The notes under the pieces were generated by a model. That model was given only the letters and a program-made list of their open reading frames with translations, was not told the origin of the DNA and ran no database searches. Shown piece by piece: positions 62,101-63,898 of a stretch of DNA of 64,000 nucleotides. Position 1 is the first letter of the stretch; the number at the start of each line of letters is the position of its first letter. Origin of the DNA: Felis catus (taxonomy: Eukaryota); NCBI RefSeq assembly GCF_018350175.1, contig NC_058383.1:39680001-39744000 (forward strand), read 5' to 3'. A program made the translations under genes and the position numbers.

Positions 62101-63898
62101 ACACGTTTTCTGGGCCGCCTCCTCAACGGCCACGTCCGGTGGCCTGTCTGTGCCCCGCCAGCTGGTGTCTGCGGGTCTACAGTGGGCCTCCTCGCCCCCA
62201 AAGTCACCGAGGGGAACCGTGCGGCGCAGCCAGGCCTCCCCCAGCCCCTGGCTCTCCCTGAGCCTACAGGCCGCCGCCTACCCGCAGGACGCTCCCCTGG
62301 CCACCACTTACCTAACGGCAAACCTCTCAACCTCCTAAACCATCAACGTGTGGCAGTGACCTCCAAATGCAAAGAACCCAAACTCTTAGCGGTCATTCCT
62401 CACCATGAGTAGCCACAACTGTTTGGTTAAAACACTGAAAATACAGCACATAAAAACAAAAAACAGAACAAAAGAACAACAAAAAAAATTAAGAAATTAG
62501 AAAGACCTTAAAACCTAGAACACAAAATAAAAAGAACTTAAATGTAATTAAAAAAAGGCAAATAAAACACATATACAAACTGAAACAGAAAACACGGTGA
62601 TGAAGAGTAAAGCTACTTTGGACGTCGCAGCGGCAGGAAGAGACGCAGGAAGAAAGCTGGTGGGGGTGCGGGCAAGAGGCGGGGCTCAGCAGCCCCGCAA
62701 CCCCCGCGGCCACCTCCCCCGGCCGCCCCGCATGAGCCGTCACCTCCAGTGGCATAGCCAGGCTCTGCCGGGGGGGGGGGGGGGCGCACCTGGCCCCCCA
62801 GGCCCCTGCCCTTCTGCCCCACCCCCCACACGGGCAGGTCCATTAACAGGTGGGCCGGCACCCAGGTCAAAGGTCGCAGAGACATGCTCAGTGTCTGCAG
62901 CAAAAGCGAAAGCGATTGGGGTCACTTGGTGACAGAACAGGCAGCTTGCAGCCACCTCCAGCAGTCAAGCTGGACACCCAGGGACGAATGGACAGTCAGC
63001 CACAAGCTGCGGCAGGGAGAAGCTCCACAAGTTCAGACCCCACAACCGCCAGCCCGCCCCAGTCCAGAGGCCCAGGGGCTTGGCCTTCCACAGGCACCTC
63101 CAACAGCCTCTGCAGGAAGGGCACCAGGCCTGGGTCGCCTCCTCCAGCCCTGGGGGTGGCATCCTTACCTGGCGATGGGGCCACAGCCTGTCTGGTGAAG
63201 GCAGGCTGAGCTCACAGACCGAAACCGGCAGCACGTGACCAGGGGCCCTGAATGAGTGAGTCCCTGCCCCTGGCTTTCTTGGGGACCCTGCTGAGGCGTG
63301 CACTCCCCAGATAAGTGCACACACCCAGGACAGCCATCTCCCCAGACTCGGAGACCCAGAAGTCAGGAGCAAAGTAAGGACAGTCTAGAGGAGAAGACGC
63401 CGACCCCTCACCCTGGACTTTCCCGCAACTGGCGTGCAAACCTCGGATGCTAAGAGGACGGCACGTTCTGGGCTGGTGTCCAGTCTGGCCACGGGGCTCA
63501 TGGGCGAGTTGAGGAACAGACGTGCTTGTGCCCCCAAACAAAGGGTCAGCCCAGCCCTGGCCTGAGGCCCACGCCCCCAGAGCAGTCCTCCTCTCCAGCT
63601 CGGACGCCCCTCCGCGAGAGGCCCTGCGAACCCAGGGGCAGCTGCAAAGGGTTGGCCGCAAAGACAGCTTCCGGAATGAGCATGGGACGATGGGGGGACG
63701 GGACGGGAGAGAGNNNNNNNNNNNNNNNNNNNNNNNNNNNNNNNNNNNNNNNNNNNNNNNNNNNNNNNNNNNNNNNNNNNNNNNNNNNNNNNNNNNNNNN
63801 NNNNNNNNNNNNNNNNNNNNNNNNNNNNNNNNNNNNNNNNNNNNNCCATGCCGTCGGCCAGGGGGAAGACGTTCAGAGAGGTGGGGCGCTCCTTCCTG
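41158..63898 (-). CDS. MAPK8IP3: JNK-interacting protein 3 (JIP3/JSAP1), partial; 5' exons lie beyond the window
   Basis: Exons: 63898-63846 then N-gap ([16 protein letters not shown]), 60221-59975, 59366-59264, 59065-58947, 52428-52417, 51042-51025, 49832-49775, 49612-49460, 48889-48808, 47734-47604, 47139-47083, 47000-46830, 46229-46103, 45959-45864, 45744-45586, 45001-44836, 44179-43997, 43902-43713, 43609-43490, 43412-43332, 43247-43180, 43094-42946, 42539-42368, 42287-42174, 41980-41942, 41767-41588, 41501-41352 and 41279-41158. Includes LZII ([18 protein letters not shown]), RH2 ([22 protein letters not shown]) and the WD40-like C-terminus ending [13 protein letters not shown]. Confidence 0.97.
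42729..42749 (+). repeat. Interstitial telomeric repeat GGG(TTAGGG)3
   Basis: gggttagggttagggttaggg read directly from the sequence, inside a MAPK8IP3 intron. Confidence 0.9.
51190..51790. repeat. G-rich compound minisatellite (about 30-36 bp GGTGGACACAGGGGAGGG...GGCCGGGG units)
   Basis: More than a dozen copies of ggtggacacagg with interspersed longer units. It explains the 556-aa and 308-aa low-complexity ORFs. Confidence 0.9.
53201..53403 (-). mobile_element. Can-SINE with TSD
   Basis: Typical body; aacaccagctttt at 53188-53200 and 53409-53421. Confidence 0.92.
53438..53637 (+). mobile_element. Can-SINE
   Basis: ggggcacctgggtggctcagtcggttaagcg head, (CT)n tract, aataaatacatacatacata tail. 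Confidence 0.9.
54667..54850 (-). mobile_element. Can-SINE
   Basis: Typical body, with a near-TSD ctttc(t)atgttctt on both sides. Confidence 0.9.
56400..56485. mobile_element. MIR fragment
   Basis: ctgggttcaagtccc...ggctcagcttcttcatctatgaaatggggg is the MIR core signature. Confidence 0.65.
57857..58070 (+). mobile_element. Can-SINE
   Basis: ggggcacctgggcggctcagtcggttgagc head, (CT)n tract, aaaataaataaacattaaaaaacaaaac tail. Confidence 0.9.
58700..58845 (+). mobile_element. Old L1M 3'-end fragment
   Basis: gggtgatggaacgctctaaaattag...cactgaactttatactttaagggg...ttttatggaatgtgaaatatatctc is typical of the L1MB/ME 3' terminus. Confidence 0.6.
63714..63845. other. Assembly gap (132 N) inside a MAPK8IP3 exon/intron junction
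   Basis: Run of N immediately after the LADGM codons. Confidence 0.99.

Follow-up and report, generated by a model that had tools for sequence, protein, structure and literature searches.

The 64-kb stretch of cat DNA analysed here (the window) ends inside MAPK8IP3, which encodes JIP3 and lies on the minus strand, and a U-rich island in intron 5 of this gene raises the question of what the splice sites gathered there do to the JIP3 message. A first-pass annotation had proposed a hub in which three acceptors share one donor, giving a 15-nt microexon, a 31-nt frameshifting exon, or a truncated JIP3. Our results point to a real, mammal-wide poison exon directly after the island, whose 3' end had been misplaced: the exon, 62434-62312, has a length that is a multiple of three and yet carries stops in every frame (Table 1). 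We consider it quite probable that this stop-carrying cassette exon of 123 nt serves as an unproductive-splicing brake on JIP3, in the full reading that includes the tract and a neuronal trend. Exons of this class are well known, and this one already figures as a table row in mouse and as a feature of gene models; it is apparently uncharacterised, and we found no paper in the open-access literature that treats it in its main text.

Table 1. Positions of the poison exon of MAPK8IP3, its signals and the flanking exons within the window (a slash marks the exon-intron boundary)
Feature	Position	Strand	Remarks
Poison cassette exon, MAPK8IP3, between exons 5 and 6	62312..62434	-	length 123 nt; every reading frame has a stop
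In-frame TGA after 13 codons	62393..62395	-	ends 81 nt upstream of donor; predicted NMD trigger
U/GU-rich extended pyrimidine tract	62435..62614	-	109 T in 180 nt, longest T run 8; upstream of acceptor
5' splice site TAG/GTAAGT	62306..62311	-	rank 1 of 238; GT-AG joint skipping 2090 nt
Donor GTGAGG of the first-pass annotation	62398..62403	-	inside exon; read through in 12 of 12 proteins
Branch point CTAAT, predicted	62496..62500 (A at 62497)	-	motif match; 63 nt upstream of acceptor (ii)
Exon 6 (downstream)	59975..60221	-	starts in phase 0; protein match and read joint
Exon 5, visible part to short (internal) donor	63847..63898	-	sequence; exon lengths in mouse and human tables

The U-rich island and its splice sites

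The identity of the gene was confirmed by exon 6, which is 100% identical to the JIP3 protein of the felid Prionailurus, and a tblastn search with that protein put exon 6 at 60221-59975 and exon 5 at about 63898, with exons 1 to 4 lying beyond the window on the upstream side. The long form of exon 5 has 93 nt more than the short form and continues under N; its donor in cat was placed by estimate, from an exon length of 145 nt. The junction between exons 5 and 6 falls where it had been said to fall, after RH1 (residues 29 to 91) and before LZII (410 to 479) and WD40 (950 to 1165), with the JNK-binding segment presumably before it and RH2 presumably after it. The acceptor of exon 5 is a CAG-CAG tandem, and use of a donor within the exon, after 63847, drops 31 codons; the long and the short donor of exon 5 are each joined to exon 6 and also to the poison exon. 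A second in-frame AG lies 9 nt into exon 6 (TGT CCG CAG; 60221-60213, minus strand); in a frog entry (P0162) the join between exons 5 and 6 lacks those three residues, and fish entries are roughly alike. In a comparison with the SPAG9/JIP4 paralogue, exon 6 matched only its own locus among 25 candidates.

The U-rich island is real and beyond chance. On the minus strand, 62614-62435 is 60.6% T, whereas no other stretch of 180 nt in the 64 kb exceeds 44% and the median is 18%, and it is likely that this tract is a splicing-regulatory platform, a role that we infer from its composition and position. The acceptor dinucleotides before 62418, 62434 and 62514, here called (i), (ii) and (iii), are all present, as are the phase-0 start of exon 6 at 60221, the GT after 62404 (ATG/gtgagg), the 15 nt encoding LWLLM, the 31-nt option, and the VLRSF-stop frame. 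The three acceptors named in the annotation thus exist, but the island has six AGs in all, from 62579 to 62418. The description of the GT after 62404 as the strong donor of the element fared less well. When a matrix derived from the donors of this gene, which themselves score 3.5 to 11.9, was applied to the visible intron 5 with its 238 GT sites, this site scored 8.1 and ranked fourth, inside the range of true donors, whereas the top-ranked site, TAG/gtaagt after 62312 (11.7), had been missed; it lies 87 nt beyond the lower edge of the interval originally assigned to the element. It is very likely that the donor first given to the exon is wrong. An alternative first exon ending in the ATG at 62404 was also considered and rejected: no examined protein starts there, and the GC-rich stretch upstream has a CpG observed/expected ratio of 0.4 to 0.8, compared with 1.04 at the true promoter. 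Other well-scoring cryptic donors or acceptors lie on the minus strand of intron 5 at 63169, 63109, 62894, 62764 and 61155, among them the donors CAG/gtaagg after 63169 and GGG/gtgagt after 61155.

Acceptor (ii) ranked only 79th of 249 in a matrix built on the gene's own acceptors, several of which were located approximately; this matrix is uninformative for U-rich sites, probably because it was trained on C-rich acceptors. An AG-free zone (62506-62437) surrounds the branch-point-like CTAAT and ends at acceptor (ii), which is the first AG after it, and these motifs together would explain the choice of that acceptor. The TAA that had been taken as the stop codon of an exon beginning at acceptor (iii) falls within this CTAAT.

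Antisense SINE exonisation leaves a T-rich tract in front of a cryptic exon, and the first-pass annotation itself held that a retroposon A-tail would undo its reading. We consider it extremely improbable that the tract is such a remnant and the exon neutral splicing noise. No element body was seen beside the tract in comparisons with the window's own SINEs and with the genome: 62001-63000 showed no similarity to the window's SINEs apart from one 30-nt GC-rich match, while a control SINE found 8 other copies; the genome search, which skips common words, returned a single match; and the longest T run is 8. In addition, the exon is used in transcripts of primate, felid and ungulate type, and the flanks of its mouse counterpart have a PhastCons value of 0.66 in the supplementary table that lists it (Table S4 of PMC11188260). 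A very old repeat origin of the tract is still compatible with these results. Rfam gave no match in 61500-63700 at E values up to 1.

Use of the acceptor and the donor

Evidence on the acceptors came from 251 JIP3-related protein entries, gathered in three protein searches and one cluster look-up, with the set drawn from the best 120 of 1815 matches in one search and at most 15 members per cluster; the third search gave 8 matches, all already in the set, and added no new clade. Among the 251 listed entries, exon 5 is joined to exon 6 without an insert in 127 (all 127 of those that reach exon 6), is followed directly by V-x-stop in 65, and leads into the peptide of acceptor (ii) in 12, from the long exon-5 donor in 8 and the short one in 4. 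The remainder comprise 7 with longer V-initial tails, 6 others and 34 without exon 5. In two entries, P0226 (horse) and P0155, the short exon-5 donor is followed by tails of unexplained origin, which may represent further cryptic exons.

That the island belongs to a real alternative-splicing element of MAPK8IP3, and that acceptor (ii) is used, had been claimed correctly. Of the 12 users of acceptor (ii), nine derive from Logan contigs, and the other three are UniRef models for Felinae, sheep and musk deer; the Logan proteins are multi-exon and therefore come from spliced RNA. Three of the Logan proteins show no difference from human isoform 2 over 217 to 248 aligned residues, and others differ at 4 to 6. 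All 12 continue past the GT after 62404, which gives no support to the 31-nt frameshifting exon that had been proposed for this acceptor. Ten of them stop at the TGA at 62395-62393, and two ruminant proteins shift frame and stop later. The tails of the sheep, musk deer and horse proteins resemble the cat exon beyond the stop, in different frames, whereas human-type and felid entries have identical tails; the frame differences would fit conservation of the RNA rather than of the peptide.

These counts bear directly on the original hub, in which the donor after 62404 would pair with 62418 to give LWLLM or with 62434 to give the 31-nt frameshift, and 62514 would lead to VLRSF-stop. Every site in this scheme has the right dinucleotides and phase, and its donor scores within the range of true donors, but neither LWLL nor VLRSF occurs in any of the 251 listed entries, every join to exon 6 is direct, and every user of acceptor (ii) reads through 62404. 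Neither the 15-nt microexon nor the VLRSF-stop form therefore has a counterpart in the set. The exon in use, at 123 nt, does not belong to the class of neural microexons (3 to 27 nt, frame-preserving), and the MAPK8IP3 microexons that are tabulated in the papers cited below (12, 18 and 24 nt) lie in other introns. We regard the hub as very improbable, although rare use of 62404, 62418 or 62514 would be compatible with the listed entries and with the cat reads, which were compared with 60110-62390.

The donor was examined in cat sequencing data. Four of 24 runs were compared with 60110-62390, a stretch that ends short of 62404 and of all acceptors, and a single joint was found, from 62312 to 60221, which skips 2090 nt and has GT-AG ends (CT..AC on the plus strand). 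It was present in three of the four runs; the fourth, the single-cell run X21, contributed no reads. In the bulk poly(A) run X24 it was seen in one raw read with 33 letters on the short side, and in X1 and X3 it was found in contigs. Contig depths in X1 were 48.6 for the joint, 104.3 for exon 6 and 23.9 for the intron, and the corresponding depths in X3 were 14.4, 22 and 9.0. These depths, which are not an inclusion level, suggest that the donor at 62312 is used often, X1 and X3 being presumed RNA runs. A poison exon would be spliced onward from its donor, as was seen in these three runs, and joined at its acceptor from the upstream exon, as was seen in the database proteins, including the Felinae model. 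No pile-up of molecule ends was found across 60110-62390, where raw-read depth was very low. An X1 contig differs from the assembly by single letters at 61180 and 61251, which are probably alleles.

Predicted decay and truncated forms of JIP3

A stop codon more than 50 to 55 nt upstream of an exon junction marks a message for nonsense-mediated decay (NMD). The TGA of the poison exon lies 81 nt before the exon's own donor and upstream of all later junctions, farther than this distance. Pairing acceptors (i) and (iii) with the donor at 62312 would likewise give early stops, 74 and 185 nt ahead of it, and the 50 to 55 nt rule predicts NMD for all of these forms, whichever acceptor is used. The NMD outcome foreseen in the first-pass annotation is thus likely to be right; its source would be the stop within the exon together with the donor at 62312, not a frameshift.

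A truncated JIP3 had also been predicted. A form containing RH1 does exist in databases, namely human isoform 2 (P0206; 250 amino acids, ending in VL), but it originates from read-through of the exon-5 donor. The contiguous genomic open reading frame of the window (P0137) likewise ends in VL-stop, whereas acceptor (iii) would give VLRSF, and acceptor (iii) was rejected as the source of the 250-residue isoform on this ground. Human isoform 2 shares with the predicted fragment a truncation at the same exon 5/6 boundary and differs from it in mechanism. Read-through endings of the types VL, VF, VS and VW occur in at least 65 mammalian and avian entries, so that amniotes in general appear to have kept a stop two codons past the exon-5 donor. 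In a table of PMC13078869, human exon 5 is given as chr16:1743331-1745103, which extends 1,627 nt beyond the usual donor, and this extended exon probably spans the human counterpart of the element.

Read-through of this kind could mean that retention of the upstream intron is the main unproductive form: exon 5 would run on for about 1.4 kb with its stop two codons past the donor, the transcript would splice out at 62312 or end nearby, and the cassette form would be secondary. We regard this as possible but rather doubtful. The V-x-stop proteins among the 251 listed entries (at least 65, from mammals and birds), the VL-stop of P0137 and the long human exon 5 tabulated in PMC13078869 are in keeping with it. 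So is an X1 contig that begins at 62312: at 162 nt it is longer than the roughly 126 nt expected for a break at the acceptor, and its depth of 25 is near that of the unspliced intron (23.9), a misfit which suggests that much of the X1 RNA may retain the upstream intron. Many V-x-stop entries, however, do not represent transcripts but short gene calls on genomic sequence, 12 proteins are cleanly spliced into 62434, and the mouse event is called a cassette exon in the supplementary tables of PMC11188260. The two forms can also coexist, and both would be unproductive if spliced downstream.

A further reading makes the element in part a terminal exon, from which a stable JIP3 fragment of 250 to 261 amino acids (RH1 plus the exon-5 segment) would escape NMD and act on motors or JNK. 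It would account for human isoform 2, for the 261-residue products in databases, and for an inclusion level (PSI) of 0.70 tabulated for mouse without NMD inhibition (PMC11188260). Against it, AATAAA and ATTAAA are absent from the minus strand of 63713-60221, where only two weak hexamers were found (63280 and 61838), the donor is spliced onward to exon 6, and open reading frames from NMD transcripts in databases are no evidence of protein. We consider this reading improbable.

The probable mouse counterpart, a proposed mechanism and its significance

The cassette exon has a positional counterpart in mouse. Zhuravskaya et al. 2024 (Tables S2 and S4, PMC11188260) list a 126-nt exon of Mapk8ip3 at chr17:25135478-25135603 (GRCm39) as an NMD-stimulating cassette exon. 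Distances to neighbouring exons were obtained with an assembly offset of 218,974, taken from a Luc7l exon common to the tables of PMC11188260 and PMC13078869 and assumed to be constant over 1.3 Mb; the mouse exon then lies 1,365 nt after the long exon-5 donor, compared with about 1,319 nt in cat, and 3,637 nt before exon 8, compared with about 3,246 nt. From position, length and gene it is very likely that the mouse exon is the same exon as 62434-62312. The two are alike in gene, strand, intron, distance from exon 5, length (126 and 123 nt) and NMD-stimulating class; they differ in that NMD has been demonstrated in mouse only, and the orthology is positional.

According to the tables of that study, inclusion of the mouse exon at day 3 rises from a PSI of 0.70 in DMSO to 0.89 in cycloheximide (delta PSI 0.19), the gene itself is up by 0.61 log2, and the event passes the cycloheximide cut-offs on one of the five time-point sheets. 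In differentiating neurons, skipping and gene expression are tabulated with r = 0.982, and the gene trend has a tau of 0.943 (PMC11188260). An efficient NMD target would be expected to show a PSI below 0.70 when no inhibitor is present, and this counts against the brake. The exon appears in that study as table rows, with the PTBP1 entry given as n/a, and the main text contains no mention of it (PMC11188260). The event runs contrary to the main trend described there, in which such exons are mostly found in genes that go down in neurons.

Other sources touch on the gene more loosely. Files 3 and 5 of PMC13078869 list four mouse and four human MAPK8IP3 events, none of them this exon, MAPK8IP3 is absent from the supplement of PMC10123112, and there were no matches in the supplement of PMC13187750 or in the main text, as available, of bioRxiv 10.1101/2025.06.26.661736. 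In the accessible text of PMC13651330, several human MAPK8IP3 isoforms with premature stops, left unnamed, respond to SMG1 inhibition, and PMC10068332 reports an AU-rich element in a validated MAPK8IP3 intron that is likewise unnamed in the text available.

We propose that RNA in which the donor at 62312 is spliced to exon 6 would, when the exon is included, be likely to undergo nonsense-mediated decay, and that the U-rich tract likely sets how often inclusion occurs. With the putative branch point at 62497, recognition of the 3' splice site by U2AF2 and TIA1-type proteins may compete at the tract with a neuronal repressor that binds U/GU-rich sequence, for which an ELAVL or CELF protein would be a candidate. 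Mature neurons would then probably include the exon little, and non-neuronal or immature cells often, and full-length JIP3 would rise with maturation. This model draws on the sequence anatomy, the cat joint between the donor and exon 6, and the joins of exon 5 to the acceptor that several mammals show among their database proteins; the response to cycloheximide and the trend in development come from the mouse table and would apply to cat through an identity of the two exons that is inferred from position, length and gene.

A bolder version would be a developmental three-way switch of JIP3 dosage and form. Skipping would give full JIP3 in neurons, inclusion would give decay, and retention of the upstream intron or escape from decay would give a stable RH1 fragment of 250 to 261 amino acids, which lacks the cargo-binding domains and would, in immature or non-neuronal cells, compete for motors. 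The stop just past exon 5, shared by mammals and birds, would be part of such a switch, and a single antisense target could then raise or lower JIP3 in MAPK8IP3 disease. We give this version little credence.

The brake would resemble the poison exons of SCN1A, SYNGAP1 and GRIA2 described in PMC13078869, which hold neuronal genes down before differentiation and are antisense targets, in that unproductive splicing acts on a dosage-sensitive neurodevelopmental gene. It differs from them in having no listed PTBP1 effect (n/a in the mouse table) and in a tract that is U/GU-rich rather than CU-rich. MAPK8IP3 is intolerant of loss of function (pLI 1.00 and pHaplo 0.93 in the available text of PMC13101558), and a toxic gain-of-function variant has been reported (PMC12016931, as far as accessible). 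An exon that is 70 to 89% included early in mouse neuronal differentiation, as tabulated in PMC11188260, would be a natural dial for the level of JIP3, which could go up if the exon is blocked and down if it is promoted. It also draws attention to a deep-intronic region in which variants could be of clinical importance. The value of the exon is practical rather than conceptual, as the class is known and the event catalogued.

The neural microexons of MAPK8IP3, one of 18 nt (in zebrafish, PMC12626420; also in the accessible part of PMC13199581) and others of 12 and 24 nt (tables of PMC13078869), share with the poison exon the gene and alternative cassette splicing, but they lie in other introns, preserve the frame and are coding. 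Two of these known exons lie on the minus strand of the window and match tabulated entries: the 18-nt neural microexon at about 51043-51026, directly preceded by an imperfect, C-rich tandem repeat several hundred bases long (about 51780-51200), and the 12-nt mini-exon at about 52428-52417, which follows another T-rich tract (52562-52443).
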